Assembly (NCBI GenBank): GCA_039030315.1
Contig: JBCCEL010000003.1
Span: 1-46,030, forward strand
DNA: 46,030 bases
Source of the DNA: Pseudomonadota bacterium
GTDB lineage: Bacteria; Pseudomonadota; Alphaproteobacteria; Rhizobiales; CAJQND01
Direction: 5' to 3'
Part shown: positions 17,684 through 39,316 of the stretch, one piece after another
How positions within the stretch are numbered: position 1 is the first letter of the stretch
Layout: every line of letters begins with the position of its first letter
Notes under the pieces: generated by a model
Seen by the model: the letters and a program-made list of their open reading frames with translations, nothing else
The model's database searches: none
What the model was told of the DNA's origin: nothing
Translations under genes and position numbers: made by a program

Positions 17684-19498
17684 TTAGATGATCAAGGTGT
17701 CGGCGTCGAAGTATCCTTCGGCAGTCACGTCGAACACATCCTGCAGAACGACCACGTCCGTGAACGGGTTTCCATCCTGACCAAGATTGACCGAAACCGT
17801 TGTGCCACGGTCTCCCTGCGTGAACATCACCAGTTGATCCAGCTCCAGGGAACTGTCCAGCCCAAGTCCTGAGAAGTCCAGGACATCGGCGGTGCCGAAG
17901 TCCGCGATCCTGTCTGTCGACACTGCGCCCAGCTCGTTCAGGACATCGTCGGAGGCCCAGACGAACGTGTCGGCGCCGAGACCGCCGAACATCTTGTCGT
18001 TGCCGAAACCGCCGGAGATGATGTCGTTGCCCGTGCCGGCCGACAGGTAGTCATTGCCGAGACCGCCTGAAAGGACGTCATTGCCGGAACCGCCATAAAC
18101 ACGGTCGTTGTGCTCGCCGCCATGGACGATGTCATCGCCGGAACCGCCGACGACGCGATCCTGGCCGCTGCCGCCATACAGCTCGTCATTGCCGGAGTGA
18201 CCGTTCAGCGTATCGGCTCCGGATTCGCCGTCAATACGATCATTGCCGCTATTGCCGTTGAGCACGTCGTCGCCGCTCCCGCCGGTGAGAACGTCATCGC
18301 CGGAATTGCCGCTGAGCTCGTCATTACCGGAGCCGCCGCTCAAGGTATCCGCCCCTGAGCCCGCGGAGATGACGTCATCCCCGCCATCGCCGTGCAACTC
18401 GTCGTCGCCTGAGCCGCCGGTGATGGTGTCTGCGCCATCGCCTCCGGAGGCATAGTCGTGGCCGGAGTTGCCGGTGATGATGTCATTGCCTGAGTTTCCG
18501 GAGATCCGGTCATCACCGGAGTTCCCGGCCAGCGTGTCGTTGCCGTCGCCGCCCTGGATGATGTCATCTCCGCTGATCCCGTGGATTTCATCATCGCCGA
18601 TGCCGCCGTAGAGGATGTCGTCATCCGGCAGATTGCCGGTTCCATTGCTCTGCGGAAGAAGGGCGACCGTGTTCTGCTGGCCGATCTCGACCCGGATGAT
18701 GGTGTCGTCGTAGTCATTGTCGCCACCGCCATAGAGATCCTCGAAACCGATCAGCAGTTCGCCGGTGACGGTGCTGGCGCGGGACACCACGTGGGAGTAC
18801 TGGTCCGGGTTCGGGGCGTAATTGTCGTCGGCGGAGGCCTGGGAGTGGAAGATGCCGTAACCGTACTGGCTGCGGATATGCACTTCCTCGTTCGGACCAT
18901 CTCCGACCCACCACAGTTCGACCAATTGATCGCCGATGTTCCCGGGCTGCCCATCGGGCGTACGGAACTCGTAGTGGCCGGTATCGGCCGAAAGTGCTTC
19001 CCGGTTGAGATACCCTTTGCCATAGCCGTTCGAGACCACGAAAAACCCGAGCTGGGTCCCGTCGGCCACATCGAACGACGTCTGGCTCTGGTTCGGCACC
19101 AGATCGCCGCCGCTGCCGGCCTTTGACGCATTGGGGAACAGGATCTTGACATTACCAATGTTTCCGTCGGCAGAAATCTCGTAAACGCCGAGAGCGTTGC
19201 GGAAACCTGCGCCTTCATCGACGAAGGTGACCTTCGCCGTTGTCGCCTGCTGGATCACCAGTTCAGACATGTCGATATAGGCCGGCTTGCCGTTGCCATA
19301 GATGATGTCGTCGCCGCCCTGGCCGTAGATGAGGTCGTTGCCGGCGCCGCCATAGACCTCATCGTTGCCGCTGAGGGCGATGATCGTATCGTCGCCGCCG
19401 TAGCCGGCAAGGACTTCGGATCGTCCTGTGCCCCGCAGGCTGTCGTCCCCGCCTGTCCCGAGGACAGGCGAGATATTCCATTGCGTATCCACGCTCAT
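17684..19498 (-). CDS. RTX Ca2+-binding repeat protein with DUF4114-like domain (probable type I secretion substrate)
   Basis: Many GGxGxDxLx nonapeptides; TFVDEGAGFRNALGVY...GFEDLYGGGDNDYDD; C-terminal ADTFVW...DRIADF...DVLDFS; no Sec signal. Confidence 0.85.
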   Translation of the reverse strand: MSVDTQWNISPVLGTGGDDSLRGTGRSEVLAGYGGDDTIIALSGNDEVYGGAGNDLIYGQGGDDIIYGNGKPAYIDMSELVIQQATTAKVTFVDEGAGFRNALGVYEISADGNIGNVKILFPNASKAGSGGDLVPNQSQTSFDVADGTQLGFFVVSNGYGKGYLNREALSADTGHYEFRTPDGQPGNIGDQLVELWWVGDGPNEEVHIRSQYGYGIFHSQASADDNYAPNPDQYSHVVSRASTVTGELLIGFEDLYGGGDNDYDDTIIRVEIGQQNTVALLPQSNGTGNLPDDDILYGGIGDDEIHGISGDDIIQGGDGNDTLAGNSGDDRISGNSGNDIITGNSGHDYASGGDGADTITGGSGDDELHGDGGDDVISAGSGADTLSGGSGNDELSGNSGDDVLTGGSGDDVLNGNSGNDRIDGESGADTLNGHSGNDELYGGSGQDRVVGGSGDDIVHGGEHNDRVYGGSGNDVLSGGLGNDYLSAGTGNDIISGGFGNDKMFGGLGADTFVWASDDVLNELGAVSTDRIADFGTADVLDFSGLGLDSSLELDQLVMFTQGDRGTTVSVNLGQDGNPFTDVVVLQDVFDVTAEGYFDADTLII

Positions 19499-19534
19499 GG
19501 GAAATTCCTTCTTGGAGTTCGAGTTGGAGTGGAG

Positions 19535-20938
19535 TTACCAGCCGATGCCCTGGTAGCCAGGCTGCACCGGGAGGTCTTTGAAGAGCCGCACGAGGTCGAT
19601 GACTTTGACATCGCCGCCGCGGCGTCTAAGGGCTTCGCGGTACTGGTCCGAAGCGTGGGTCACCACGACCAGCTCCGCTGCGTCGAGCACGTCCTCGACG
19701 TCATTGCTCAGCATGCCTGGCAGCGCGTCCACCGTCGGCTTCAGATGGGGACAGACGCTGCTGACATAGGAGAACTGATCTGAAATCCGGGTCTCGGGGG
19801 TGATCGCCTCGTCATGTGCCGAAACCTCATAGCCTTCGCCCAGAAGCTGGTTCAGAACTTCCAGGATGGGGCTCTCGCGCAGGTCGTCCGTGCCGCGTTT
19901 GAAGGCGAGGCCGAGGAAGCCGACTTTCCTTGCGCCACTGCCGCGCACCATCTCGACAGCGTCGGCTATCTGCGTCTCGTTGGATTTGCCGAGGCTGTCG
20001 ATCAGCGGCACGTTGACGTCCAGCTCACCGGCGAGATGGGCGACCGCACGCACTTCTTTCGGCAGGCAGGAGCCGCCATAGGCAAAACCGGGCTTCAGAT
20101 AATAGGGCGACAGGTTCAGTTTCTGATCCTGCACGAATATGTTCATGACGTCGTGGCTGTCGATGCCGAGCGGCTTGCAGATGCGGCCGATCTCGTTGGC
20201 GAAGCAGACCTTGGTGGCGTGCCAGACATTGTCGGCGTACTTGACCATCTCCGCAGCTTCGATCGTCGTCAGCAACGGCGCTTCGTCGACCGGACGATAG
20301 ATGTTCGCCACAACGCGGGCCGTGTAGTCGTCGCTTGCACCGATGACGGTCTTGGGCGGGGCGCGGAAGTCTTCGATCGCGGTACCTTCACGCAGGAATT
20401 CCGGGTTGAAGCAGACCCCGAAATCGCGGCCCATCGTCTTGCCGGAGGCTGCCTCGATTTCCGGCACCATCACGTTCAGGGTCGTGCCGGGCGGAATCGA
20501 ACACCGCATGACGATGATGTGATGTTCGTATTTCAGGGCCAGAGCCTGTCCGATGGCACGAGCCGACTTGATGATGGCAGTGTAGTCGCAGCCGCCGCCT
20601 TCCTTGGTGGGCGTGCCGACCGAGACGAAAGTGACGTCGGTATCAACGACAGCTGCGATGAGATCGCCCGTCGTGCTGATGAGATGGTTGTCGACGCCTT
20701 CGCCGAGCAGATCGGTCAGGCCGGCCTCATGGATGGGAGACTTGCCGCTTCCGACGGCCGCGCGTTTGACGGGATCGATGTCGCAGCCGACGACGCGGTG
20801 CCCGAGACTGGAGAGGCAGGCGGTCGAGACGGCACCGACATAGCCCAGTCCAACCACGCTGATGGCCGGCAGGTTCTTGACGAGTTTGAGGTGAGCGGGT
20901 GTGGCCGTGGCCTGGTTGATTTGAGCGAGAGCGTTCAT
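19535..20938 (-). CDS. algD: GDP-mannose 6-dehydrogenase
   Basis: GLGYVG, FNPEFLREG, KLNLSPYYLKPGFAYGGSCLPKE, GLAFKRGTDDLRESP, terminal YQGIGW; alg8/alg44/algA context. Confidence 0.9.
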   Translation of the reverse strand: MNALAQINQATATPAHLKLVKNLPAISVVGLGYVGAVSTACLSSLGHRVVGCDIDPVKRAAVGSGKSPIHEAGLTDLLGEGVDNHLISTTGDLIAAVVDTDVTFVSVGTPTKEGGGCDYTAIIKSARAIGQALALKYEHHIIVMRCSIPPGTTLNVMVPEIEAASGKTMGRDFGVCFNPEFLREGTAIEDFRAPPKTVIGASDDYTARVVANIYRPVDEAPLLTTIEAAEMVKYADNVWHATKVCFANEIGRICKPLGIDSHDVMNIFVQDQKLNLSPYYLKPGFAYGGSCLPKEVRAVAHLAGELDVNVPLIDSLGKSNETQIADAVEMVRGSGARKVGFLGLAFKRGTDDLRESPILEVLNQLLGEGYEVSAHDEAITPETRISDQFSYVSSVCPHLKPTVDALPGMLSNDVEDVLDAAELVVVTHASDQYREALRRRGGDVKVIDLVRLFKDLPVQPGYQGIGW

Positions 20939-20979: not shown

Positions 20980-20994
20980 TCAACTGTCATGCCA
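20980..20994 (-). promoter_or_regulatory. Sigma-54 promoter of algD-RTX (variant -12)
   Basis: TGGCAT-GACAG-TTGA (GA rather than GC at -12). Confidence 0.6.
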
Positions 20995-21022
20995 ATCCCG
21001 GCATGAAAATAAAATCATTTAA

Positions 21023-21035
21023 TTTCAAAAGATTA
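21023..21035. promoter_or_regulatory. Putative IHF site
   Basis: TTTCAAAAGATTA, one mismatch to WATCAANNNNTTR, next to an A/T tract, between promoter and enhancer motifs. Confidence 0.55.
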
Positions 21036-21067
21036 GCTAGGGATCATCGGATTTTTCCACTGATCGT

Positions 21068-21135
21068 TTTTCATTGCAGAAACCGCCGTTTTCAAAATCG
21101 AAATGCCACCAATCCGGCGCTTTCGAAACTGAAAA
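21068..21135. promoter_or_regulatory. Putative enhancer (UAS) cluster A
   Basis: TTTTCAttgCAGAAA 21068-82, TTTTCAaaaTCGAAA 21089-103, TTTCGAaacTGAAAA 21121-35. Confidence 0.65.
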
Positions 21136-21138
21136 TGC

Positions 21139-23088
21139 TCAAGCGCCGGACGCCCGTCGGATTTCGAAAAGTGGGTTGCTGCCGAGAAAGCTCTGCAGGT
21201 TGCCGAAAGACCAGGATTTCGCAGTCTCACATTTGCCGTCAGCGCAGTGTGCGAGTTTCACGGTCAGCTGGAACGGTGCTGCCGGATAGAAGAGATTTGC
21301 GTAGGCCAGGAGTTGATGGCCAGAGGATGCTCCGGGAATCAATCTGGAATAGCGCTCCCGCAGTTTGGCTGTCGCGAAAGCATCCCATCCGGCGCCGGGC
21401 ATCCAGCGGCGCGCGCGCGGTCCCTTGCCGTCCAGGTCCCGGGCCAGGATCGCGCCCTGGTCCAGCAGACGGTCCAGCGTGGTCTGCAATGACCTGCGCT
21501 GCCGGGGGGCCAGGGCATGCCGGATGGCGCCGAGGCCCATCAGGCTGAGGCCGGCGTGGTTGACGTCTTCGACACGCCTTGGATTGGGTTCCGGTTTCCG
21601 GACGGGGCGGAGTTTGGAGATCCGGTCCGCCTTCTGCCAGCCCCGATAGTACCGGGGAACCCAATATCTCCAGAGCGCCCCTCGCGCGTCAGCGGACCAG
21701 GTTTGCACGAACGCATCCGCAATTCGGGATGCGCGGGCATTGAGGTGCGGACGTTTTTCGGCCGTGCCAACCCGGTCGAGCACCGTTGCCCAGGTCAGAT
21801 GCCAGTTCCAGGGCGCCCATATGCCATCGAAGCGGAACGGCGCTCCGTACTGGATGCGGTAGTGCCCCGTCCGCTCGTCGTAATGGCGTTCGTACGATCT
21901 GATGAGGCGCGAAGCGTTCCTCTGAACCTTGTGTTGAAGCCCCGGCGTGCATCTTTCGCCCAGGCGTTCACATGCCCGCAGCAGCGCGCCCGATATCATG
22001 GCCTGATTGATCTGAAACGACACCGGGCTGCGCCGGTCGATCGAGTAGATACGGGAGGCCCAGGCAGCAGCGGGATTGAACTCGCCGCCGATCCCCAGGT
22101 CCCTGTTCCGAACGGACAAGGTGTTGCGCATCGCCAGGGTGGCGAGATCGGCGAACACGCGGTGACCGGTCTTCTGATAAAGCGTCGCCAGGGTCAGGGT
22201 CCGATAGGACTGTGTCCAGCTTTGTTTGCCCGCTTCATCGGATGCAAGCGATGCCGGTTCGCCAAGTCCGCGCAAGAGCACACCGTTGATGGCGTGGAAG
22301 GCCATCTTCGCGGCGGGCGTTCCGGAGATCGAGAGGATCGCAGCTCCGTGTTGTCCCTTGAGGAGCCTGGGCGCCAGCGTCTCATCGGCTTCGGTCGCAC
22401 GGAGCTTCGAGACCTCACCGGACTTCATGTCCAGCTCGAGGAGGTCACTCCCCCGTTTGGGATCGCAATAGGCCTGAAGAAGAATGGAACGGCGCGTTGC
22501 CTTGGTGCCCAGAACTGCGCATCCCTCATAGGAGCCCAGCAGCATGCCATCCCGTGCGACGCGGTTGCCCTTGCGGGAATATCTGTAGAAGCGCGTGCGC
22601 TGCGCGCGCTTGTCGAACACGGACACGATCAATTCGTGCCGCCGGAAAACGAGGACACGGACGACCGCGAGCCGGGGCCACTCCAGGACTGGCTCGCCAT
22701 TATGGATCAGCTCGACCCTGGATTTGGGGCCTTTGGTTGTGCGGATGTAGACAAAGTCGCCGCCGGGACCGAAGCGGAAGCCGCCGATCCGCGACACGTC
22801 ATCGATGTCCTTGCCGTCAACGACGACCGTATCGCCGAACGTCACGGTCGGCCGGAACGCGCCCTTCTCCCAGAAGGACCGCAGCTCATAACCGCCCTTG
22901 CGCCCGACGCTGTTCAGCCCCCGCATGGAGACGCCGTTTTGGCTCGCAAGTCCTGTCGCCGTGTTGAAGGAGAAGCCCTTGCCGCTTTGCTCGATAATGT
23001 AACCGCCGCCCGCAAACGCCGGCGATGCGCCAACCAAAGCAGCGAGGGCGCAAGCTGCCGCTTGCGCCCGGTTTGGTGAGATCGACAT
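21139..23088 (-). CDS. Exported protein of unknown function (beta-rich N-terminus, aromatic/basic helical C-terminus)
   Basis: ATG 23088 just after the algI stop; signal peptide ending ASPAFA; last gene of the acetylation operon. Confidence 0.75.
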   Translation of the reverse strand: MSISPNRAQAAACALAALVGASPAFAGGGYIIEQSGKGFSFNTATGLASQNGVSMRGLNSVGRKGGYELRSFWEKGAFRPTVTFGDTVVVDGKDIDDVSRIGGFRFGPGGDFVYIRTTKGPKSRVELIHNGEPVLEWPRLAVVRVLVFRRHELIVSVFDKRAQRTRFYRYSRKGNRVARDGMLLGSYEGCAVLGTKATRRSILLQAYCDPKRGSDLLELDMKSGEVSKLRATEADETLAPRLLKGQHGAAILSISGTPAAKMAFHAINGVLLRGLGEPASLASDEAGKQSWTQSYRTLTLATLYQKTGHRVFADLATLAMRNTLSVRNRDLGIGGEFNPAAAWASRIYSIDRRSPVSFQINQAMISGALLRACERLGERCTPGLQHKVQRNASRLIRSYERHYDERTGHYRIQYGAPFRFDGIWAPWNWHLTWATVLDRVGTAEKRPHLNARASRIADAFVQTWSADARGALWRYWVPRYYRGWQKADRISKLRPVRKPEPNPRRVEDVNHAGLSLMGLGAIRHALAPRQRRSLQTTLDRLLDQGAILARDLDGKGPRARRWMPGAGWDAFATAKLRERYSRLIPGASSGHQLLAYANLFYPAAPFQLTVKLAHCADGKCETAKSWSFGNLQSFLGSNPLFEIRRASGA

Positions 23089-23102
23089 GGATGAGATCCG
23101 TT

Positions 23103-24596
23103 CTAGAAGTTGAAGTAGATGAATTCGGTCAGGTCCCCGAGGCGGTAGACCTGCAGCAGGGCCACCGCGAAAACACCGCTCACCGCCATTGCCCAGCGCC
23201 GGCTCGGGCGCCAGCTCACGGCTGCCGACCGGCGGATATGCTGCGCCGCGTCGATGACGGGGCGGTACTTGCGGACGAGTTCGATGGAGTTCGGGGCGTA
23301 GAAGACAACCAGCGCCAGAGCGATGAACTGCACCCACGGCAGGCCGGTTTGCGCCAGTACGCCCGACCAGGCCTTCACATCGTAGAGCTCAGTGAAGCCC
23401 AGCATACCGGACATGACGGCCAGCGCCCCATCCAGAGTCTCCGCCCGGAACGGCACCCAGGCGAAGATGACCGCAAGCATGGTGAGACCCTGAGCAAGGC
23501 TCGAGGAAAGTGCGCGGGTGAGCGGAGAGACGTCCTTCCGGCGCGGAAACACTGCCGACCAGGCATGGTTGATTGCAAGGTAAACACCGTGCAGTGCGCC
23601 CCAGAGGACGAAGTTCCAGCTCGCTCCGTGCCAGAGACCGCCAAGCACCATGGTCGCGAAAAGGTTGAGATAACGGCGGAACCTGCCGTGGCGATTGCCG
23701 CCGAGCGGTATGTAGAGATAGTCACGCAGGAAGCGGGAGAGCGTGATGTGCCAGCGGCGCCAGAAGTCGACAATGCTGGTGGCCTTGTAGGGCGAGTTGA
23801 AGTTGATCGGCAGGCGGATGCCGAACATGCGCGCCAGCCCGAGGGCCATGTCGCAATAGCCGGAGAAATCGAAATAGATCTGGAACGTATAGGCCAGCGC
23901 GCCGATCCAGGCGGCCTCGGCCGGCACGGCGTGGCCCGCATCCGCCAGGCTGAAGACCGATGTTGCCAGCGGCGCGATGCCGTCGGCCAGAACGATCTTC
24001 TTGAAGAGCCCGATGGCGAACAGAGTCCCGCCAACTGCCAGGTTCAGGAACAGTTTGCTCTGAAAGACCTTCAGGGTGAACTGCGGGATCGTGTCCTTCT
24101 GCAGCACGATCGGTCCGGCGATCAACTGCGGGAAGAACACCACGAACAGGCAGTACCTGGAGAAGTCGCACTCGCTGATCTCCCCGCGCCATGTGTCGCA
24201 AAGGAACGATATCTGCTGGAACGTGAAGAACGAGATGGCAAGGGGTAGGATGATGCCAAGTGCCGGGAGGTCAGCACCCGGCAGCAGGTTGATATTGCCG
24301 ATAAGGAAGTCGGCATATTTGAAATAGGCAAGCGTGGCGAGGTTCCCGGCGATACCGGCTGCCAACACCGGCTTTGACCTGGTCCGCAGGATCATCCGGT
24401 GCAGGCCGAAGTTCGCCAGCACCGAACCGATGAGCAGCAGCAGGTGGATCGGGCTCCACCAGGCGTAGAACGCCAGAGAAGCGGCGATCAGCCACCAGAT
24501 GATGGCACTTTCCCGGCCCCAGGCGCGCAAGGCGAGATAGCCCAGCAGCACCGGCGGCAGAAACAGGTAGATGAATTCAAGGGAACTGAAGACCAT
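23103..24596 (-). CDS. algI: MBOAT O-acetyltransferase (AlgI-like)
   Basis: MVFSSLEF, PLAISFFTFQQIS, FFPQLIAGPI, QIYFDFSGYCDMA, FWRRWHITLS, GLWHGA, FIYFNF. Confidence 0.9.
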   Translation of the reverse strand: MVFSSLEFIYLFLPPVLLGYLALRAWGRESAIIWWLIAASLAFYAWWSPIHLLLLIGSVLANFGLHRMILRTRSKPVLAAGIAGNLATLAYFKYADFLIGNINLLPGADLPALGIILPLAISFFTFQQISFLCDTWRGEISECDFSRYCLFVVFFPQLIAGPIVLQKDTIPQFTLKVFQSKLFLNLAVGGTLFAIGLFKKIVLADGIAPLATSVFSLADAGHAVPAEAAWIGALAYTFQIYFDFSGYCDMALGLARMFGIRLPINFNSPYKATSIVDFWRRWHITLSRFLRDYLYIPLGGNRHGRFRRYLNLFATMVLGGLWHGASWNFVLWGALHGVYLAINHAWSAVFPRRKDVSPLTRALSSSLAQGLTMLAVIFAWVPFRAETLDGALAVMSGMLGFTELYDVKAWSGVLAQTGLPWVQFIALALVVFYAPNSIELVRKYRPVIDAAQHIRRSAAVSWRPSRRWAMAVSGVFAVALLQVYRLGDLTEFIYFNF

Positions 24597-24610
24597 GGTT
24601 CTGCCTCGTC

Positions 24611-25798
24611 TCAAGTCTGGGAGTTGTTTTCGCCGGCCTGCTTGAGCAGGGCCTGCAGGAGGGTCTTGGAGCCGGTGTGGCCAAGCGAACTGCCCCTGCG
24701 GGCGAGTTTCAGGGCTCCGGCCATGTCTTTCGGCGCAAGCTTGCCTTCGGCACAGATGCGGGCGAGCTCTTCCATGGCTCCGGCATGGGAAGCCTTCACA
24801 CCCTTCTGGAACCAGGCAACGGCGCCGTCTTTCTTCAGGCCGTGCAGTTGCTTGAGATGCAGCCGGCCAAGTTTGGTCATTGCCCCGCCATGTCCGGCTT
24901 CCGCGGCGCGCTTGAGCCAGCCGATTGCCTCATCGGCACTCTTCGGTCCGGCTTTATCGACCAAAAGCAGGTTCGCCAGATCGTGCATCGCCCCGGGGTT
25001 ACCGAGATGACTGGCGTGGCGGAACCAGTAGAAAGCTCTTTCTCTCGAGCGCTGGACGAATTCGCCATCGCGGTAAAGCCGCCCCAGGGTCTTGGCCGGG
25101 CTGCCGGAGCCGGAGCGGGCTTTCGTCTTCAGGGCATTGATTGCGCGGGCCGCCAAGGCCCGGGCCCGTTCCGGATCCTTCCTGACGCCGTGATGGCCCT
25201 TCAGCAGGATACGGGCATACTTCAGAGAAACCGCCTCAAAGCCGGCCCTCGCAGCCCCTTCGTAGTGATACAGCGCGCGGCTCTGATCGGCGTCCACGCC
25301 GATGCCGCGCGTAAAGTGGCCAGCCAGCTGCACGTGTGCCTTCTCATAACCCCAGTCCAGCGCCTTCAGGAACCACTCGACAGCGATGCGGTTGCAATCC
25401 GGTCCCGATGATCTCTGATAGAGCCGGCCCAGTTCGAAGGCCGCTTCACCGCGCAGGGAAAACTTGAACTGAACGGCGCGCAGAAGCGCCATGCGGCCCT
25501 TCTCCAGATCGGGCGACACGCCCCAGCCGCGGGACAGTATTTTTCCGTGATGAAACAGCGCGTGCGGATAGCCCTGATGGGCATAGCGTTCGATGATCTC
25601 GGCTGCCTCGGTCCACTTGCCCAGCTTCTGCAGGCCGCGGGCCTGGTTCAGGTGTTCGGTGACGAGCGGATCAGTGGGCGGTTCCTTGGCAAGGTCCGGA
25701 AGTCCGCGCCAAAAGAACACGGTTGCGCAGAGGGCGCACAGGACCACGAAGGGCGCGACATTCACGAGAAACAGCTGAGGGTTTTCAGGCCGGGTCAT
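24611..25798 (-). CDS. Sel1-like repeat protein (AlgK-like scaffold)
   Basis: N-terminal TM; Sel1 repeats (WFLKALDWG, WFRHASHLG, WLKRAAEAG); alg context. Confidence 0.8.
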   Translation of the reverse strand: MTRPENPQLFLVNVAPFVVLCALCATVFFWRGLPDLAKEPPTDPLVTEHLNQARGLQKLGKWTEAAEIIERYAHQGYPHALFHHGKILSRGWGVSPDLEKGRMALLRAVQFKFSLRGEAAFELGRLYQRSSGPDCNRIAVEWFLKALDWGYEKAHVQLAGHFTRGIGVDADQSRALYHYEGAARAGFEAVSLKYARILLKGHHGVRKDPERARALAARAINALKTKARSGSGSPAKTLGRLYRDGEFVQRSRERAFYWFRHASHLGNPGAMHDLANLLLVDKAGPKSADEAIGWLKRAAEAGHGGAMTKLGRLHLKQLHGLKKDGAVAWFQKGVKASHAGAMEELARICAEGKLAPKDMAGALKLARRGSSLGHTGSKTLLQALLKQAGENNSQT

Positions 25799-27077
25799 TT
25801 GCACGCCTCCAGATCCTGCAGTTCGAGCCTTCGGTCATCGTCACGATTCCGTCTGTAACTGTGTCGGAAACCGCCTTCCCATGGACGGGACAGGCAATAC
25901 CGGCCCGTGACCTGGCAGCAGCGTTTTCGACAGAAACCGCATTGGTCAGCAGCTGGCCGACCTCGCCCACGATGTTGCGGGCGGCACGGGCGTTGAAGTG
26001 ATAGGCATCGGTAAAGTTGCCGAGATTACGGGTGAACGGGTTGTCGAAATCCAGATCGACGACCGGCGCCAGGGCGGCGAGCCTCAAGCGCAGGCGGCGG
26101 TCGAGATCCGAGCGGCCAAACTCTGCGATCCGCGCCTGCATTTCGGGGATCGTCGGCGGAATCACGAAAACCAGGTTGACGCCGTTCGCCCTGCTCCACT
26201 CGGCAATCTCGGCAATCTTCGCCCAGAGGTCCTCTGAAAACCTGAAACGCTTCCAGTCGGACTTTCCGTTCTTGCGGACCTGCCTGGCAAAGCGGGCCGG
26301 AAGATCACGATTGATGGAAATGTTCTGCCAGAGCCTAGCCCAGCGGCCATACCCGTAGCCGTGGCCCTGCCCGCGGCCATAGACGGGATAGGGAACCGGC
26401 TCCCGCAGTTCCGGCAGGCGGCAGCCAAAGCATACGTCAGGCTGCAGCAGGGTCCCGAGGCTGGTGCGGCCGGGCGAGCCCAGATCGGCCGCTCTGGCGG
26501 GTGTGGTGAAACCCGGAAGCAGACCACGCAGCGTTGCCAACTGGCGTGGATATCTTGCCTCGACCTGCCGCCAGGATATTCGGGTGACGAACCAGCTGGT
26601 GAAATACTTGACCGGGTTTCCTGCAAGCTTCAGGGCCTCCGGCACACGGTTCATGCCAGACTTGTGGGCCGGATCGAAACTGCGGAGCTGGATGCCGACC
26701 ACCAGGTTCTTCGGCTTCGGCTGCGTCTTGAGATAGCGGAAGGTCTCGTGGATCTCGTGGATCGTCGCGCCGCCATAGGCGAAGTTGAAGGCGCGCTTGA
26801 TGCCGAGCTCGCTCCAGTATTTGTCGCGCAAGGCGCGCGCGCGACTATCGCCGAGAATGATCGTTTCCGGCGGCCGTTTCCTGGAATGGGCAATGACCTT
26901 CCACAATGGATAGTGGGCCTTTTCGCTGATCTTTTTCTTGGCGAGCCCGAGCGGCAGTCCGCCAAGCCGGTCATACGGATCGACGGCAAGGTTAAGCGCG
27001 ATGGGAAGCGCCCCGAGGCACGCCGATGCCGCCAGAGCGGCGATATACGGTTTTGGAATGGACGAGCGTTTTGACAT
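25785..27077 (-). CDS. SGNH-like O-acetyltransferase partner (AlgX/AlgJ/DltD-type)
   Basis: N-terminal anchor + VDPY; ILGDSR, FNFAYGG, FTDAYHFN (DxxH). ATG 27077 chosen because ATG 27128 lies inside the sigma-54 promoter. Confidence 0.72.
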   Translation of the reverse strand: MSKRSSIPKPYIAALAASACLGALPIALNLAVDPYDRLGGLPLGLAKKKISEKAHYPLWKVIAHSRKRPPETIILGDSRARALRDKYWSELGIKRAFNFAYGGATIHEIHETFRYLKTQPKPKNLVVGIQLRSFDPAHKSGMNRVPEALKLAGNPVKYFTSWFVTRISWRQVEARYPRQLATLRGLLPGFTTPARAADLGSPGRTSLGTLLQPDVCFGCRLPELREPVPYPVYGRGQGHGYGYGRWARLWQNISINRDLPARFARQVRKNGKSDWKRFRFSEDLWAKIAEIAEWSRANGVNLVFVIPPTIPEMQARIAEFGRSDLDRRLRLRLAALAPVVDLDFDNPFTRNLGNFTDAYHFNARAARNIVGEVGQLLTNAVSVENAAARSRAGIACPVHGKAVSDTVTDGIVTMTEGSNCRIWRRANDPA

Positions 27078-27117
27078 TTCAAGCTTGCTTCGCAGTGGGT
27101 GGTCTGCACCTCCTCCC

Positions 27118-27132
27118 GCAAGCGGCATGCCA
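27118..27132 (-). promoter_or_regulatory. Sigma-54 promoter of the SGNH-Sel1-algI-unknown operon
   Basis: TGGCAT-GCCGC-TTGC, canonical -24/-12 spacing. Confidence 0.8.
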
Positions 27133-27159
27133 TTGTTAGCAAACGTATTTATTTAATAA

Positions 27160-27172
27160 AAACAATAACTTA
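27160..27172. promoter_or_regulatory. Putative IHF site
   Basis: AAACAATAACTTA, one mismatch to consensus, preceded by an A/T tract. Confidence 0.55.
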
Positions 27173-27193
27173 CCAGATCATCACTACGCGCCC

Positions 27194-27250
27194 TTTCGAT
27201 ATTGAAAACCACCGGTTTTCAATATCGAAATCGCGGTTTCAATATCCGGC
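27194..27250. promoter_or_regulatory. Putative enhancer (UAS) cluster B
   Basis: TTTCGAtatTGAAAA 27194-208 and TTTTCAataTCGAAA 27216-230 (17-bp perfect inverted repeat, 3-nt spacer); partial third copy over the alg8 stop. Confidence 0.7.
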
Positions 27251-28831
27251 AAAGGACCTCAGCAGCGTGCCGGACGGAATTTCGATGAGCCGGGTATAGT
27301 GCACGGTCGAGAGCACCAGCAGAGCTGCCGCCAGTGCCGTGCACCAATTGTCCATGGCGTTGCGGAAGAGTTGCAGGAGCGCATCGCCGCTTGCAGCAGC
27401 GGTCTGGTTGCCCCGGTTCGACCAGCGCTGTTTGGAGAGACGGAATATGCAGTAGACCTTCACGGAGGCATTGATGAGCTGATTGAGATAGAGAATCCAG
27501 GGATAGGCCATCTGGATGCGGCGGGAGTAGCCGAACAGGAAAAGCGAGAGCAGCATGCGGCTGAGCGCGATGAAGATGAGATAGGACAGGATGTAGGTCG
27601 GGCCCTGCAGCAGCGTGGCAGCGACGGCCAGGACCGGGCTTACCAGCATGGTCCACATCGAAAGGCGCTGATCCACCAGGCACCACCAGATGAAGAAGGG
27701 CATCCGGTGCGGACCGAGCTTGATGGCCCGGGCACCGTTGCGCAGCATGTTGCCGGACCAGCGCCGGAAGTTCTGCACCATCCGGTCCATGCCGGAGCCT
27801 TCGATCACCTCGACCGTGTAGCCGAGGGCATCCGGCACGTAACGCATGTGGGCGCCATGCTTCAGCATGAAGTACCAGGTGCTCTTGTCGTCGCCTGAGA
27901 GGAAGCGGAAGTTCCCCCAGAGCCAATGCTCCAGGTGATCGGCTTCAAGCAACCGGATGAACTCCAGCTGCAAAAGATTTCTGGCCCGAAAGACGGACAT
28001 GCGGCCGGTCAAGGTCAGCACCCGGCCGGAAAGCGCATGTGATTGCATCGCCAATCGGCGCTGGGCGAAGCGCATTTTCAGCCAGGTCTCGATCCAGCGC
28101 GGGCCAATGCAGATGACCTCCTCGTCGGTCGTGCAGGCCTGCAGGTCCGGGTAGAGCTTGAACAGCGGCATGCAGCGGCTGATCGCCCCTTCGGCGAGAA
28201 TGAAGTCGCCGTCCATGAAGACGACCAGATCGTCCTCATCGATCGGCAGCCGGCACATGGCGCGCAGAACCAGGCCGATCGCCGCCCGTTTGCCGGACAC
28301 ATTTTGCCGGATAATGCGCAGGGTGATGTCGGTGTCGCCCGCCTCGCGCCGCAGAAAGTCTTCTATGATGTCTTCATCGAAGCGGTCGGAGGAGCCGAGC
28401 CAGATCGTGCCCGGGACACCGGAGTTCCTGATCTCCAGCAGAATGGAGCGGACCACCTTTTCCGTGATCGAGCGGTGCTCCTTGTAGGTGGTCATCATGA
28501 AATGCATGTGCCGGGGGCGCCAGCCAGACTCCCAGATCTTGCGCCCCTCTTCGCGCATGCGCGGGTAGACGTACTTGCCGTAAATGACCGCCCGCACCGC
28601 GTGTGTGAACCACCAGCCGTAACGCCAGATGCCGAGCGCGCCGATCACGAAGGTGATCTGCGCCACCTCCCGATCCCAGATGCTGTTTGGCAGGGTCAGG
28701 ACGGCAATCAGGCAGCAGCCGAAATAGAGCGCGATCTTGAAGAGCGCGAAGGGTGTCCACTTCCGCCAGCCCGTCGGCCAGTCGGTCGGATCGTCGAGAT
28801 TGGCGACCTTATCAAGCTTCACTGCCGGCAT
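27239..28831 (-). CDS. alg8: GT2 alginate polymerase (Alg8-like)
   Basis: IGALGIWRYGW, GKRAAIG, MDGD, VLTLTGRMSVFRA, FLSGDDKSTWY, RRWSGNMLR, DQRLSMWT. Confidence 0.88.
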   Translation of the reverse strand: MPAVKLDKVANLDDPTDWPTGWRKWTPFALFKIALYFGCCLIAVLTLPNSIWDREVAQITFVIGALGIWRYGWWFTHAVRAVIYGKYVYPRMREEGRKIWESGWRPRHMHFMMTTYKEHRSITEKVVRSILLEIRNSGVPGTIWLGSSDRFDEDIIEDFLRREAGDTDITLRIIRQNVSGKRAAIGLVLRAMCRLPIDEDDLVVFMDGDFILAEGAISRCMPLFKLYPDLQACTTDEEVICIGPRWIETWLKMRFAQRRLAMQSHALSGRVLTLTGRMSVFRARNLLQLEFIRLLEADHLEHWLWGNFRFLSGDDKSTWYFMLKHGAHMRYVPDALGYTVEVIEGSGMDRMVQNFRRWSGNMLRNGARAIKLGPHRMPFFIWWCLVDQRLSMWTMLVSPVLAVAATLLQGPTYILSYLIFIALSRMLLSLFLFGYSRRIQMAYPWILYLNQLINASVKVYCIFRLSKQRWSNRGNQTAAASGDALLQLFRNAMDNWCTALAAALLVLSTVHYTRLIEIPSGTLLRSFAGY

Positions 28832-30419
28832 GATCTTCTCGTGACCAGAAATTGGCAATGCGCGCGAACAGATCGTTCGTCATACGCCGGTCGAAGATGA
28901 CCACAGCCGGCAGTCCGGCCCGGATTTCCCGCTTGCGATCTCCGGCGGACAGGAGGAGCGAGACGGAGGCCGTACGCTCGCCATTCGCCTTCCAGGTATA
29001 TTGCGACGATTTTAGATCCAGGTGCCCGGACTTCCGGTTGATACCGATCACCGTCGCCTCCACGTGCCGGCCGAGGGCCGGAACGTAGACTCTTGCCCTG
29101 TCGTTCATGCCAATCCGCAGCACTTCGTTTTGGTCGAGGAATGCCGTCACCGTGGGAGGTACGTCCTGCTCCAGAGCGAGCACCGGCTGCTCCTTCGAAA
29201 TGGCCAGGCCGGCGGCGACCGGCATGGAAACAATTTGACCGTCGAAAGGGGCGCGGATTACACGCGCTGCCTGCATCTGCCTGAGCCCTTGCAGCTTGGC
29301 CCGGGCGAGCTTGAGCCGGCCATGCGCCTCGTCCAGATCCAGTGCCAGCATATCGAGGTCGACAACGAATTCCTTGTGATTGTAGTGGCGCTTGTCCGAT
29401 GCGGAATGCATGACGGTGGCCTGTTCTACCGAAAGCTCAAGCTCGCGCACCTGGGCCGCAGCGCGGAGCTGGCGGGACCTCGCCTCCTCCAGAGCCTTGG
29501 CGTTCGAGAAGCCCTTCTTATGCAGCGTGGCGACGCGGGCGTAGTTGGCATCCGCTGCGTTCAGGGCAACGCGCCGCGCCTCAAGCCGCGCGCGGGCGAC
29601 GTCGAGATCGGTCTTGTTGATGGTCTGATAGAGTTTCAGGCGCTCCGCTTCGATCCGGTAGCGCTCCTTCGCGCGCAGGTACTTCGCGCCGGCATCCTTT
29701 GCTTCGGCGTCAGCCGCCATGATCTGCGCATCGAGGCGCGGGTCTTCGATCTCCGCAACGACGGCGCCCCGGCGGACATGATCTCCCAGGGAGTAGCGGA
29801 CAGATCGCAAAACTCCGTCGACCGGCATCCGCAGCGTCTGCACAGGAACGGAGACCACCGCCGACTGAACCTCCAGCCGCATGATCGAGGAGTAGGTGAG
29901 CAAACCGCCATATCCGAATACCGCCGACCCCAGCAGGATATAGAGGCAGGACATCAGGATCGTCTTGACCGGCCAGCGCGAAACCGGCGCGTCCGATTGC
30001 GGGTTCGGGTCCGGCTGGGTCGAGATTGGCGTCACCGGAATGTCGATGCGGCAGATTGCGTCTTCCACCGTCCCCATCTGCCCGCGGATCAGGTCCTCGA
30101 TGAAGTGAGACATCAGATCCCGGGACCGCTCGGGCACCTCGGTGTACTCGAACGCGACGGTCCTCTCGGTCTCAACGAGGCGGACAACACGCGCCTTGAG
30201 CTCAAAGCCGATGTCGAACCCCTGGAACGGCAGAACCAGGTTAAGCTGCAGTTCGGTGCCGATGGCCGGCAAATCACCGGCAACACCGTCGAGCCGCAGG
30301 CCGCCGAGGCTCCAGTCCGTCGCACGGTACTGAACGGCATCCCCTCCCATCTTCACATGCAGCGGAGCGGTGACGCGGTGGTGGCGTCTCTGGCAGGGGC
30401 GTTCGCGAATGACTTTCAT
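28812..30419 (-). CDS. alg44: PilZ + membrane-fusion co-polymerase (Alg44-like)
   Basis: c-di-GMP motifs QRRHHR (RxxxR) and DWSLGG; TM; HlyD-like coiled coil and IRAPFDG; GGAGA RBS before ATG 30419. Confidence 0.85.
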   Translation of the reverse strand: MKVIRERPCQRRHHRVTAPLHVKMGGDAVQYRATDWSLGGLRLDGVAGDLPAIGTELQLNLVLPFQGFDIGFELKARVVRLVETERTVAFEYTEVPERSRDLMSHFIEDLIRGQMGTVEDAICRIDIPVTPISTQPDPNPQSDAPVSRWPVKTILMSCLYILLGSAVFGYGGLLTYSSIMRLEVQSAVVSVPVQTLRMPVDGVLRSVRYSLGDHVRRGAVVAEIEDPRLDAQIMAADAEAKDAGAKYLRAKERYRIEAERLKLYQTINKTDLDVARARLEARRVALNAADANYARVATLHKKGFSNAKALEEARSRQLRAAAQVRELELSVEQATVMHSASDKRHYNHKEFVVDLDMLALDLDEAHGRLKLARAKLQGLRQMQAARVIRAPFDGQIVSMPVAAGLAISKEQPVLALEQDVPPTVTAFLDQNEVLRIGMNDRARVYVPALGRHVEATVIGINRKSGHLDLKSSQYTWKANGERTASVSLLLSAGDRKREIRAGLPAVVIFDRRMTNDLFARIANFWSREDHAGSEA

Positions 30420-30449
30420 TTGGCAGGTCTCCATGTCGCCCGAACAGGA

Positions 30450-30464
30450 GCAACCGGCATGCCA
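30450..30464 (-). promoter_or_regulatory. Sigma-54 promoter of alg44-alg8
   Basis: TGGCAT-GCCGG-TTGC(T), canonical. Confidence 0.8.
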
Positions 30465-30513
30465 GCGAATCCGGCCTCTTTCTCACCGGAAATGGGAAGA
30501 CGGGGCCTCCAGA

Positions 30514-30551
30514 TTTCGAAATTCGAAATCCGGTCTTTTCGAATTTTGGAA
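30514..30551. promoter_or_regulatory. Putative enhancer (UAS) cluster C, shared by divergent promoters
   Basis: TTTCGAaatTCGAAA 30514-28 (perfect arms) and TTTCGAattTTGGAA 30537-51. Confidence 0.65.
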
Positions 30552-30663
30552 TCCCGGGCGAAACCGGCATGGCGCAAAACGAGCGTGCCAATCTGCAAAA
30601 TCTCCCGGAATTCTGCGGATCACGCCCATGCCGGCACCCGTGACACTCACGCCATGCCAGTTC

Positions 30664-30678
30664 TGGCCAATCCCTTGC
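30664..30678 (+). promoter_or_regulatory. Sigma-54 promoter of algA-pmm
   Basis: TGGCCA-ATCCC-TTGC (GG-N10-GC). Confidence 0.65.
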
Positions 30679-30732
30679 GACTGGAGGGCCAAGCGCGGCG
30701 TGCCATCGCCGCCCGGTCCAAAGGAGATGCAA

Positions 30733-32199
30733 ATGACCTCAAACAAAATCACCCCGATCATTCTTGCCGGCGGTGCCGGCACCCGTCTGTGGCCGGTGTC
30801 GCGCGAAGAAAGCCCGAAGCAGTTCTGCCGGCTGCTCGACGGACAAAGCCTGTTCCAGGCGACAGCAAAGCGTGTCTCCGACCCGGCACTGTTCAACGCT
30901 CCGATCATCGTCACCGGCGCCCAATACGCCGGCCTGGCCGAACAGCAGCTTGCAGAGTACGGACTGGAAGCCTCTGCGATCGTCTGCGAACCCATGGGCC
31001 GCGACACCGCACCCGCGATCGCCGCCGCTCTGGCTGCCGCGCGTCCGGGTCCGGTGGCGGAAAACTATCTTGTGCTGCCGTCCGACCATGCCATTGAAGA
31101 CGACGAAGCCTTGAAGACTGCCATCCGGACGGGCCGCGATCTCATCCGGCACAGCCGGCATCTCGTGACCTTCGGCATCGCGCCCAGCCGGCCCGACACA
31201 GGCTTCGGATACATCCGGGCCGAACGCGACGAACTCCGGCCGGGTGTCCATGCGGTCAGCCGCTTCATCGAGAAGCCGGATGCCGCTCGGGCGGCGAACC
31301 TCATCCGCGAGGCGGGCACATCCTGGAACGCCGGCATCTTCCTGTTCAACGGTCGCGACATGCTCGATGAGCTGGAGCGGCATGCCCCCGAGCTTCTCTA
31401 CATGGTCAGGAAGAGCCTCGCGAACGGCACCATGTCCGGCAGCAAGGTCTTCCCCGATGCAGCCGCTTTCGCGAAGGCGCCGAAGCTTTCCATCGACTAC
31501 GCCGTCATGGAGCACACCGAAAGAGCGGCCGTAGTTCCGGTCGATCCCGGCTGGAGCGATCTCGGCGCCTGGTCGGCCATCTGGGAGCGCGGGGAAAGCG
31601 ATGTGGTCGGCAATGTTCTCGAAGGTGATGCCATCGCGGTCAACAGCACCGGCTCGCTCGTCCGCACCGACGGGCCGACAGTGGCCATTGCCGGCGTGGA
31701 TGACCTGGTGGTGGTCGCCAACCGCGACGCCGTGCTTGTGGCCAGGAAGGACGATGCACAGTCGGTCAAGACACTGGTTGAAACCATGAAGGCGGAAGAT
31801 CGCGTCGAGCAGAAGCGTCACGCCGGCGAGGACCGTCCGTGGGGCCGGTTCGATTCCATCGACCGCGGCGAGCATCACCAGGTCAAGCGTATCAGGGTGC
31901 ATCCCGGTGGCCGTCTGTCGCTGCAGTATCACCATCACCGTTCGGAACACTGGGTCGTGGTGTCCGGCACTGCCCAGGTGACTGTCGGCGACAATGTCAT
32001 GGCTCTTGGTCCTTGCGAGCAGGTCTTCATCCCGCAGGGCGAGGTGCACCGCCTGGAAAACCTCGGCTCCGAACCGGTTGAAATCATTGAGGTTCAGTAC
32101 GGAGACTACCTTGGCGAAGACGACATCGTGCGTGTTGAGGATGTCTACGGCCGCGAAGCCGTTCCCGCCGCACTCGACGAAAATCTCGCAGCCGCGTAA
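30733..32199 (+). CDS. algA: Mannose-1-phosphate guanylyltransferase / mannose-6-phosphate isomerase (AlgA/ManC)
   Basis: ILAGGAGTRLWPVSR, PKQF, FIEKP, SIDYAVME, WSDLG, cupin RPWG...SLQYHHHRSEHW; AAGGAG RBS. Confidence 0.93.
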   Translation: MTSNKITPIILAGGAGTRLWPVSREESPKQFCRLLDGQSLFQATAKRVSDPALFNAPIIVTGAQYAGLAEQQLAEYGLEASAIVCEPMGRDTAPAIAAALAAARPGPVAENYLVLPSDHAIEDDEALKTAIRTGRDLIRHSRHLVTFGIAPSRPDTGFGYIRAERDELRPGVHAVSRFIEKPDAARAANLIREAGTSWNAGIFLFNGRDMLDELERHAPELLYMVRKSLANGTMSGSKVFPDAAAFAKAPKLSIDYAVMEHTERAAVVPVDPGWSDLGAWSAIWERGESDVVGNVLEGDAIAVNSTGSLVRTDGPTVAIAGVDDLVVVANRDAVLVARKDDAQSVKTLVETMKAEDRVEQKRHAGEDRPWGRFDSIDRGEHHQVKRIRVHPGGRLSLQYHHHRSEHWVVVSGTAQVTVGDNVMALGPCEQVFIPQGEVHRLENLGSEPVEIIEVQYGDYLGEDDIVRVEDVYGREAVPAALDENLAAA

Positions 32200-32208
32200 G
32201 GACACATC

Positions 32209-32961
32209 ATGGACCGCATGTATCTCTTCGACGTCGATGGCACGCTGACCGAACCCCGTCAGCCCATCGACCCCGATTTTGCCCAGTTCTTCGAGCGCTT
32301 TTGCAAATCGCACCCGGTCTATCTCGTCTCCGGCAGCGATCTGCCCAAGCTGGAAGAGCAGTTGCCGAGATCAATCCTCGCTCACGCAAAAGGTGTTTTC
32401 ACCTGTTCGGCGGCAGAACTCTGGGTCGATGGCAAGGCCAGCTATCAGCTCGATCATGAGTTCCCGAAGGAACTTGTGGAAGCCCTTGAGGGTTTTGTCG
32501 ATCTCAGCCAGTATCCGCGCCGTTTCGGCAATCATATCGAGTTCCGGACCGGCATGATCAATTTCAGTGTCGTTGGCCGGAACGCCGAGCACAGCGACCG
32601 GCAGACCTATTTCGCCTGGGACCAGCAGGAGGGCGAACGCAAGGAATTCATCCGCCGCTTCGTTCAGACCTACACGGACTACGAGGCCTCGGCGGGTGGC
32701 GAGATCAGCATCGATATTGTGCCGAAGGGCTGGAACAAGTCCCGGGCACTGGACGTTCTCAAGCAGGATTTTCCGGATGCAACGATCACCTTCTTCGGGG
32801 ACCGCATGGCGCCGGGCGGAAACGACTATCCATTGGCAGAAGCCCTGAAGGCAGATTCCCCCCGGCATCAGGCCGTTTCGGTCGGCACGTTCTACGAAAC
32901 CTGGCGGCTGCTCAGCGCCTTATCCGCACCAGGACATGAGGTTTTCCGGCAGGCGTCCTGA
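32209..32961 (+). CDS. HAD-IIB phosphomannomutase, eukaryote (PMM2/Sec53) type
   Basis: LFDVDGTLT, VSGSD, IEFRTGMINFSVVGR, GGEISID, PKGWNK, FFGD...GGNDY. Confidence 0.85.
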   Translation: MDRMYLFDVDGTLTEPRQPIDPDFAQFFERFCKSHPVYLVSGSDLPKLEEQLPRSILAHAKGVFTCSAAELWVDGKASYQLDHEFPKELVEALEGFVDLSQYPRRFGNHIEFRTGMINFSVVGRNAEHSDRQTYFAWDQQEGERKEFIRRFVQTYTDYEASAGGEISIDIVPKGWNKSRALDVLKQDFPDATITFFGDRMAPGGNDYPLAEALKADSPRHQAVSVGTFYETWRLLSALSAPGHEVFRQAS

Positions 32962-32989: not shown

Positions 32990-33016
32990 TGGCGGGCAAT
33001 TTGCCCGCCATTTTTT
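32990..33016 (+). terminator. Rho-independent terminator of algA-pmm
   Basis: TGGCGGGCAA-T-TTGCCCGCCA followed by TTTTTT. Confidence 0.75.
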
Positions 33017-39152: not shown

Positions 39153-39316
39153 TTTCGAACTGGTCTTGGTCACCGGGAGCACTCACCTACTGTCCACTGC
39201 TGATCCTAGCCCCATGCAGAGCGATTGTCTTGCAGGGATGACATCCCCCCGGAACGCGCGCATGGTTCAGATGAGAGCAAGGACCGCCCCCTGGTTTCCA
39301 TAAGCCGAGTCTGGCG

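Follow-up and report, generated by a model that had tools for sequence, protein, structure and literature searches.

What switches an exopolysaccharide cluster whose genes are spread over four transcription units? The question is raised by a stretch of 46,030 nucleotides from an alphaproteobacterium of the order Rhizobiales (GenBank assembly GCA_039030315.1, JBCCEL010000003.1, positions 1 to 46,030; hereafter the window), which is the entire contig C3 of a 6.17-Mb draft genome in 600 contigs, estimated to be 88% complete with 4.5% contamination. The gene content of the cluster suggests an alginate-like exopolysaccharide based on GDP-mannuronate, and the genes form four transcription units. An initial annotation of the letters had described a −24/−12 promoter element and clustered 15-base-pair (bp) motifs before each unit, and had proposed that a LuxO-like activator encoded beside the cluster binds these motifs. 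Following up this proposal, we consider it probable that the four units are driven by sigma-54 and switched by the adjacent LuxO-family activator, acting at boxes with a TTCGA core.

All four −24/−12 elements are present, at 20980, 27118, 30450, and 30664 (Table 1). In the sigma-54 consensus TGGCAC-N5-TTGCW, a GG at −24 and a GC at −12 stand ten bases from each other; the elements at 27118, 30450, and 30664 have this arrangement, and the element at 20980 reads TTGA at −12. The form TGGCAY-N5-TTGM matches the window three times (20980, 27118, and 30450, all on the minus strand) against 0.41 expected, a number reached in none of 100 shuffles. The looser form TGGC-N7-TTGC matches seven times against 2.45 expected, including the plus-strand element at 30664; two of the four other matches are the two strands of a hairpin at 32990-33010, which mimics this form on either strand, and two lie in coding sequence. 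Across both strands of the whole genome, TGGCAY-N5-TTGC matches 41 times, two of them in the window. A sequence search found no sigma-70-like promoter in the three intergenic regions, which is weak evidence, and the genome encodes RpoN itself (C196:8550-10052, 456 bits; cut-off, 277).

The same elements recur in related clusters. A glycosyltransferase scan yielded 314 related stretches, with metagenome-assembled Anderseniella and Rhodobiaceae genomes as the nearest public relatives; the best 80 of the 314 were examined, and twelve window proteins were placed on these loci by tblastn. The window itself is omitted from all counts in relatives. TGGC-N7-TTGC is found no more than 200 bp upstream of the Alg44-like gene in 57 of 74 relatives, at most 330 bp after the family-2 glycosyltransferase (GT2) gene in 48 of 76, and 45 to 63 bp before manC in 36 of 40, compared with at most 0.003 per locus in shuffles. 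Upstream of the dehydrogenase gene, TGGCAY is combined with a noncanonical −12 in 37 of 43 relatives and TTGC occurs in none (0/43). The −12 in these 43 relatives (L001-L059 range) reads TTGA in 22, TTGT in 4, TGGC in 4, or similar, and in many of them TGGCAY-N5-TTGA stands 53 to 60 bp ahead of the start codon. Because the same departure is found in 37 of the 43, the odd −12 of promoter A reflects conservation, not a poor match that arose by chance. At the manC promoter, the departure is at the other end: only 4 of 40 relatives have TGGCAY there, and the −24 is mostly TGGCC or TGGCAA. Such departures, TTGA at −12 and TGGCM at −24, may tune each unit, and the TTGA of the dehydrogenase promoter may set its basal level or its dependence on the activator. 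Taken together, this conservation supports the enhancer-binding-protein promoter layout that the initial annotation had assigned to the locus.

The motif described in that annotation, TTTCGANNNTSRAAA, has six matches in the window against 0.01 expected. These correspond to five distinct sites, one of them palindromic, which start at 21089, 21121, 27194, 27216, and 30514; with two weaker copies they form three clusters placed, as described, 50 to 150 bp from the promoters. Measured from the upstream edge of the −24 element, the distances are 74 to 141 bp for boxes A, 62 to 98 bp for boxes B, and, for boxes C, which are common to the two divergent promoters, 50 to 87 bp from the minus-strand and 113 to 150 bp from the plus-strand element. 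Start-to-start spacings are 21 and 32 bp in A, 22 bp in B, and 23 bp in C, in agreement with the 20 to 23 or 32 bp noted originally. These spacings are kept in relatives as well: those of 32 and approximately 20 bp recur in L001-L004, that of 22 bp in L002, L003, L004, L006, and L062, and that of 23 bp in L002, L003, L004, and L006. A strict palindrome form, TTTCRANNNTYGAAA, was tried and rejected in favor of TTTCGANNNTSRAAA; with at most one mismatch it recovers just two sites, and it falls in the wrong register where the second half is TTTTCA.

The genome-wide motif scan that had been suggested as a check places these boxes first. TTTCRA-N2-TYGAAA has five matches in 6.17 Mb, three of them in the window. 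Regions A and B, with six half-sites each, are the two richest half-site clusters in the genome; region C, with four, is level with seven other places. We derived a matrix from 37 sites in 7 relatives, leaving out the window to avoid circularity. Its top four matches in the genome are window boxes, distributed over the three intergenic regions, and window boxes make up 5 of the 11 matches scoring at least 19 bits. Of the six remaining matches at this threshold, on C430, C477, C47, C44, C485, and C260, the first four were inspected; none was accepted as a regulon member, each being either within a coding sequence or without a −24/−12 element in its vicinity.

The contig ends C430:4100-4476 and C477:1-100 carry inverted copies of an ABC-ATPase gene fragment, which give rise to two high matrix matches; the shared ends are probably an assembly artefact. 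Between promoter C-minus and its boxes, the window reads …TTTCTCACCGGAAATGGG… at 30474-30492, and L002-L005 have …GGTGAGAA… at the same place, a recurrent stretch that may be a site for another factor.

Sites resembling that of integration host factor (IHF) had been noted between promoter and motif in two cases. Both are present, in AT-rich spacers, and each has one mismatch to WATCAANNNNTTR (Table 1). They are 2 of 14 one-mismatch sites in the window. Taken alone they would be weak evidence, because 13 to 15% of spacer shuffles yield such a site. In relatives, we searched the 75 bp preceding each −24 element and allowed no more than one mismatch. An IHF-like site was present after GT2 in 36 of 61 loci (expected, 9.6) and before the dehydrogenase gene in 27 of 35 (expected, 6.5), mostly 30 to 49 bp upstream of −24 and in one orientation. 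Three HU/IHF-family genes are present in the genome, all scoring below the ihfA cut-off. The AT-rich spacers and the ease with which shuffles produce a single IHF-like match are what could be said for the idea that motif and promoters arose by chance from the AT richness of the intergenic DNA. This idea is refuted, and we give it next to no probability: the six motif matches far exceed the 0.01 expected, the four best matrix matches of the genome fall in the window, and place, spacing, and orientation are kept in dozens of loci.

The boxes have a recognizable relative. The published LuxO site is TTGCAWWWTGCAA (TTGCA-N3-TGCAA), and five Vibrio cholerae sites from chromatin immunoprecipitation sequencing fit it, according to PMC10328515 and PMC10162802; the likeness in geometry drawn originally thus agrees with the literature. 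The window box has the 15-bp LuxO geometry with the core changed from GC to CG in both halves. Most relatives have TTTGCA-N3-TGCAAA-type boxes where the window has TTTCGA-N3-TCGAAA, in the same places relative to the promoters. Because the canonical box occupies the equivalent places in most related clusters, we interpret the TTCGA box as a variant of the LuxO box. In the regulatory regions of the window and the five close loci that have all regions (L002, L003, L004, and L006, with the mixed L005 set apart), there are 13 to 17 TTCGA/TCGAA words versus 0 to 3 TTGCA/TGCAA words, and the shorter loci L001, L007, and L062 have 7, 8, and 4 TTCGA words with no TTGCA. Most other loci show the reverse, with 7 to 22 TTGCA/TGCAA words versus 0 to 5 TTCGA/TCGAA words. 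L005 (9 TTGCA versus 10 TTCGA words) and L011 (10 versus 6) are mixed and contain hybrid boxes.

Counting boxes instead of words gives the same division. We counted boxes with at most two mismatches 20 to 170 bp upstream of detected promoters, taking the four promoter classes in turn. In the window's clade, which is Anderseniella-like, at least two CG-type boxes are found in 5/5, 4/7, 5/5, and 5/5 loci, and no locus has two or more of the GC type. Elsewhere, at least two GC-type boxes occur in 28/54, 25/55, 17/30, and 16/32 loci, against a shuffle expectation of at most 0.1, and at least two CG-type boxes in 1, 2, 0, and 0. A maximum-likelihood tree of 41 activators contains the window's clade as 7 rows with an SH-aLRT support of 100; L005 lies inside it as the sister of the window, and L011 is sister to the clade with a support of 96.

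The activator encoded beside the cluster is a complete enhancer-binding protein of the NtrC class. Its Pfam domains are Response_reg, Sigma54_activat (234.6 bits), AAA_lid_14, and HTH_8, the last a Fis-type helix-turn-helix at the C terminus, and its translation contains GESGTGKE (Walker A), GAFTGA, and LLDLNLPD with the receiver aspartate. Of all models, it scores best on the LuxO model NF041946 (580.8 bits, compared with 381.9 for NtrC), and its best solved relative is LuxO (5EP0, 456 bits). Because 580.8 bits is below the cut-off of 800 bits for LuxO orthologues, we file it as a LuxO-family protein and not as a LuxO orthologue. The neighboring hybrid kinase is likely to be its phosphodonor. 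An activator of at least 40% identity is encoded at 40 of 80 loci and at 24 of the 44 loci with full flanks, and 37 of these 44 have a match to the kinase. The gammaproteobacterial loci L017 and L033 (Colwellia), L042 (Kangiella), and L029 (Bermanella) carry the same cluster, with a GT2 protein of 74 to 77% identity and GC-type boxes; the first three also encode, next to it, a more distantly related activator that shares the SPSTLYRK helix. These loci suggest that cluster and regulator spread together horizontally.

Several observations weigh against assigning the four units to sigma-54 and the adjacent activator. Promoter A lacks the C of the −12 GC. Twenty of the 44 full-flank loci encode no activator of at least 40% identity within 10 kb; the Roseibium loci end inside the kinase, and their activator may lie just beyond the locus end. 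The division into clade and other loci that underlies the box counts is not fully independent of the boxes counted, but the same clade appears in the activator tree. The genome also encodes a second LuxO-family activator (C43:8290-9735, 554.5 bits) with the helix-turn-helix (HTH) sequence ISPSTVYRR, which could in principle read the boxes. Finally, the recognition helix SPSTxYRK is invariant in all 41 activators, across lineages with TTCGA and with TTGCA boxes. In a residue test from which four long-branch rows (L020, L045, L053, and L055) were dropped, no HTH column was exclusive to the CG clade, and the sole positions both fixed and exclusive were 139 and 161, which lie outside the HTH. The clade and L011 share the combination K464, K467, M468, and L473, each residue of which is also found elsewhere. 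Because no HTH residue separates the box types, the change of box has no simple protein correlate.

Two alternatives draw on these points. According to one, another protein reads the boxes, either the C43 activator or some unrelated regulator, for instance a repressor, and the adjacent activator works elsewhere or through other sites. The presence of a second LuxO-like protein, and a recognition helix that stays unchanged although the box departs from the canonical form, would fit such an arrangement. The C43 paralogue, however, has no relative above 48% identity in 30 related genomes (48% is also its identity to the window activator), yet loci of the same genus have TTCGA boxes; it is not linked to any box cluster on its own contig, and box type tracks the tree of the adjacent activator instead. 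We therefore regard a different reader as improbable, and continue to favor the activator encoded beside the cluster.

The other alternative keeps the adjacent activator as the reader but supposes that it does not distinguish a GC from a CG core, so that the passage from TTGCA to TTCGA would be drift under relaxed specificity. An invariant recognition helix is compatible with this, as are the mixed or hybrid boxes of L005 and of L011, the sister of the clade, which occur with the same HTH. In Vibrio fischeri, moreover, PMC10162802 describes LuxO-dependent activity as hardly altered by changing the G of TTGCA; the weaker half TTTCA, which is frequent in the window, corresponds to a G-to-T change that LuxO tolerates there. 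The same paper indicates that the C and A of TTGCA did matter. The core is also strongly kept inside each group, as the word counts above demonstrate, and the genome under study retains GC-type boxes at a sigma-54 promoter on contig C7. On balance, drift appears unlikely to us, if far less so than a different reader. Somewhat better placed, though still tentative and short of an even chance, is the possibility that the whole regulon changed its box in step, with the enhancers of all four promoters passing from TTGCA to TTCGA in one marine Hyphomicrobiales clade, the recognition helix remaining constant save for I473L, and L011 and L005 preserving hybrid states.

If the adjacent activator reads the boxes, as we favor, the mechanism is the ordinary one for enhancer-binding proteins. 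In a phosphorelay, the hybrid kinase would phosphorylate the receiver of the activator by way of the receiver and Hpt domains that the kinase itself carries. Once activated, the protein would bind as dimers that build a hexamer on two or three 15-bp TTTCGA-N3-TCGAAA boxes, one half of which is often the weaker TTTTCA, spaced two or three helical turns apart and located 50 to 150 bp upstream. At two of the promoters, a bend at the IHF-like site in the AT-rich spacer would bring the activator to the closed sigma-54 complex, and ATP hydrolysis through the GAFTGA loop would then open the promoter. One pair of boxes would serve both divergent promoters.

Among known systems, V. fischeri SypG and its four syp promoters come closest. 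According to PMC3843225 and PMC10162802, the syp locus has four sigma-54 promoters, each with an upstream enhancer read by the LuxO-like response regulator SypG, which the locus itself encodes, and has a hybrid kinase beside it; the SypG enhancer is the 15-bp TTCTCANNNTGMDWN. The window likewise combines a polysaccharide locus, four sigma-54 promoters, three box clusters, and an adjacent activator with a hybrid kinase, and its box shares the 15-bp geometry of the SypG enhancer. The core is different, TTCGA in place of TCTCA, so that the box departs from TTCTCANNNTGMDWN at positions 3 to 5 of the left half. Unlike syp, the window genes are alginate-like (GDP-mannose dehydrogenase, PilZ/HlyD, GT2, Sel1, and MBOAT), no SypE/SypA branch was seen in the window, and the host is alphaproteobacterial.

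Vibrio LuxO and its qrr targets offer a second comparison. The window activator is closest to LuxO, its proposed box has LuxO geometry, and its phosphate, as with LuxO, would arrive through an Hpt step. In the window, however, the kinase carries a fused Hpt domain, whereas LuxO is served by the separate LuxU; the targets are protein-coding polysaccharide operons and not small RNAs; and the boxes read TTCGA-N3-TCGAA where LuxO has TTGCAWWWTGCAA, alongside the subthreshold score noted above. A Qrr search of the 88% complete genome gave no match, and the control of that search likewise matched nowhere. Alginate itself provides a third point of reference. In Pseudomonas aeruginosa, the NtrC-family protein AlgB with its kinase KinB, together with sigma-54, bears on expression of the algD operon, algD transcription is mainly AlgU-dependent, and AlgB acts without its sigma-54 function. 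Unlike this arrangement, each unit in the window has its own −24/−12 promoter and enhancer. A literature search found no published account of the cluster or its regulation. Labrenzia aggregata belongs to a genus that has the cluster, and one paper states in passing, citing earlier work, that RpoN positively regulates biofilm in this species.

The initial annotation had spoken of a complete sigma-54 regulon. This description is too wide, given the 41 genomic matches to TGGCAY-N5-TTGC, two further activators, and a genome that is 88% complete. There are three real sigma-54 activators in the genome: that of the window, an NtrC/AtoC-like protein with a kinase on C197, and the LuxO-family protein on C43, whose gene adjoins a glycosyltransferase-like gene. 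Two canonical GC-type LuxO-like boxes lie at C7:36456-36500, 55 to 100 bp upstream of TGGCATGGGTCTTGC at 36556; the gene that follows encodes a PLP (pyridoxal phosphate)-aminotransferase/MocR-like protein without an HTH and was not found at E ≤1e-80 in 8 genomes of the family. The C43 paralogue and the C7 gene are accessory or foreign to the genome, and either contig could be contamination. We also considered whether CG boxes evolved to insulate the regulon from a C43 activator reading the GC boxes on C7; this idea is unneeded because CG boxes also occur in clade members that lack the C43 paralogue, though it may yet apply to this genome. As far as the available 88% of the genome shows, the regulon defined by TTCGA boxes seems limited to the four window units.

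The gene content of these units (Table 1) is what marks the cluster as alginate-like. The best solved relative of the dehydrogenase is GDP-mannose 6-dehydrogenase (1MFZ, 397 bits, compared with 248 bits for UDP-glucose dehydrogenase), and the manC product exceeds the cut-off of TIGR01479 with 546.6 bits, so that the AlgD and AlgA functions of an alginate cluster are both present. With regard to the other alginate functions (Alg8 polymerase, Alg44, AlgK, AlgI, and AlgE/AlgG/AlgX/AlgL), domain searches found PilZ+HlyD, GT2, Sel1, and MBOAT genes. In the solved-structure search, EmrA was the sole match of the PilZ/HlyD protein, and the sequence search found no solved relative of GT2. Searches of families and solved structures gave no family or solved-chain match for the 430- and 732-amino-acid proteins, and no epimerase, lyase, or porin was identified among the cluster genes, two of whose products match no family. 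The hairpin at 32990-33010 is likely a two-way terminator; an Rfam scan of the window gave no match. Elsewhere in the window, 11835-14777 encodes a 980-amino-acid protein with a caspase-like (EACC1-associated) domain and 38310-39182 an HD-domain protein of the Npun_R2479 family, both unrelated to the sigma-54 finding.

Table 1. Regulatory elements and genes of the exopolysaccharide cluster (window coordinates)
Feature	Position	Strand	Description
Unit A genes	17684-20938	−	GDP-mannose 6-dehydrogenase (19535-20938); RTX-repeat/DUF4114 protein (17684-19498)
Sigma-54-type promoter A	20980-20994	−	TGGCAT-GACAG-TTGA; noncanonical −12; before GDP-mannose 6-dehydrogenase gene
IHF-like site A	21023-21035	+	TTTCAAAAGATTA; 1 mismatch to WATCAANNNNTTR; spacer 66% AT
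Enhancer boxes A	21068-21135	.	21068-21082 (weak, 11.5 bits); 21089-21103 (24.1 bits); 21121-21135 (19.9 bits)
Unit B genes	21139-27077	−	430-amino-acid protein of no family (25785-27077); Sel1-repeat (AlgK-like); MBOAT (AlgI-like); 732-amino-acid protein of no family
Lone half-site A	21163-21168	.	Within end of upstream gene
Sigma-54 promoter B	27118-27132	−	TGGCAT-GCCGC-TTGC (TGGCATGCCGCTTGC); before 430-amino-acid protein gene (25785-27077)
IHF-like site B	27160-27172	+	AAACAATAACTTA; 1 mismatch to WATCAANNNNTTR; spacer 67% AT
Enhancer boxes B	27194-27230	.	27194-27208 and 27216-27230; 24.1 bits each; mutual reverse complements
Lone half-site B	27237-27242	.	Sequence match
Unit C-minus genes	27239-30434	−	PilZ+HlyD, Alg44-like (28812-30434); GT2 (27239-28858)
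Sigma-54 promoter C-minus	30450-30464	−	TGGCAT-GCCGG-TTGC (TGGCATGCCGGTTGC); before PilZ/HlyD (Alg44-like) and GT2 operon
Enhancer boxes C	30514-30551	.	30514-30528, palindrome (26.4 bits, best match in genome); 30537-30551 (15.0 bits)
Sigma-54 promoter C-plus	30664-30678	+	TGGCCA-ATCCC-TTGC (TGGCCAATCCCTTGC); before manC and HAD operon
Unit C-plus genes	30727-32961	+	manC (mannose-1-phosphate guanylyltransferase/isomerase); HAD-IIB hydrolase
Hairpin, likely terminator	32990-33010	both	Perfect hairpin, T tracts on each side; between convergent HAD and activator genes
LuxO-family enhancer-binding protein	33015-34472	−	Receiver, AAA+ with GAFTGA, HTH_8
Hybrid sensor kinase, 1037 amino acids	34497-37610	−	Tll0287-like sensor, two PAS, HisKA, HATPase, receiver, Hpt

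What is new in this locus is a TTCGA variant of the LuxO box with natural intermediates, and probable LuxO-type control reaching an alginate-like polysaccharide in marine bacteria. With TTGCA and TCTCA, the LuxO/SypG box family gains TTCGA as a third core. Should the preference of the activator truly have moved, the clade and its neighbors would offer a natural, steppable series of co-evolution between a transcription factor and its site. The intermediates serve the study of HTH specificity, a matter that PMC10162802 leaves open in V. fischeri because SypG resisted purification.

For the organisms themselves, a polysaccharide cluster that is common among marine bacteria, with 314 related stretches, gains a fully specified and testable, if proposed, wiring diagram, in which an Hpt-bearing sensor kinase, a LuxO-family activator, defined boxes, and IHF-like bends act on four sigma-54 promoters. 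If the regulon did change its box in step, the wide distribution of LuxO-family activators, with canonical LuxO boxes, beside alginate-like clusters in marine Alpha- and Gammaproteobacteria would suggest that the family controlled surface polysaccharide before it took part in quorum sensing.

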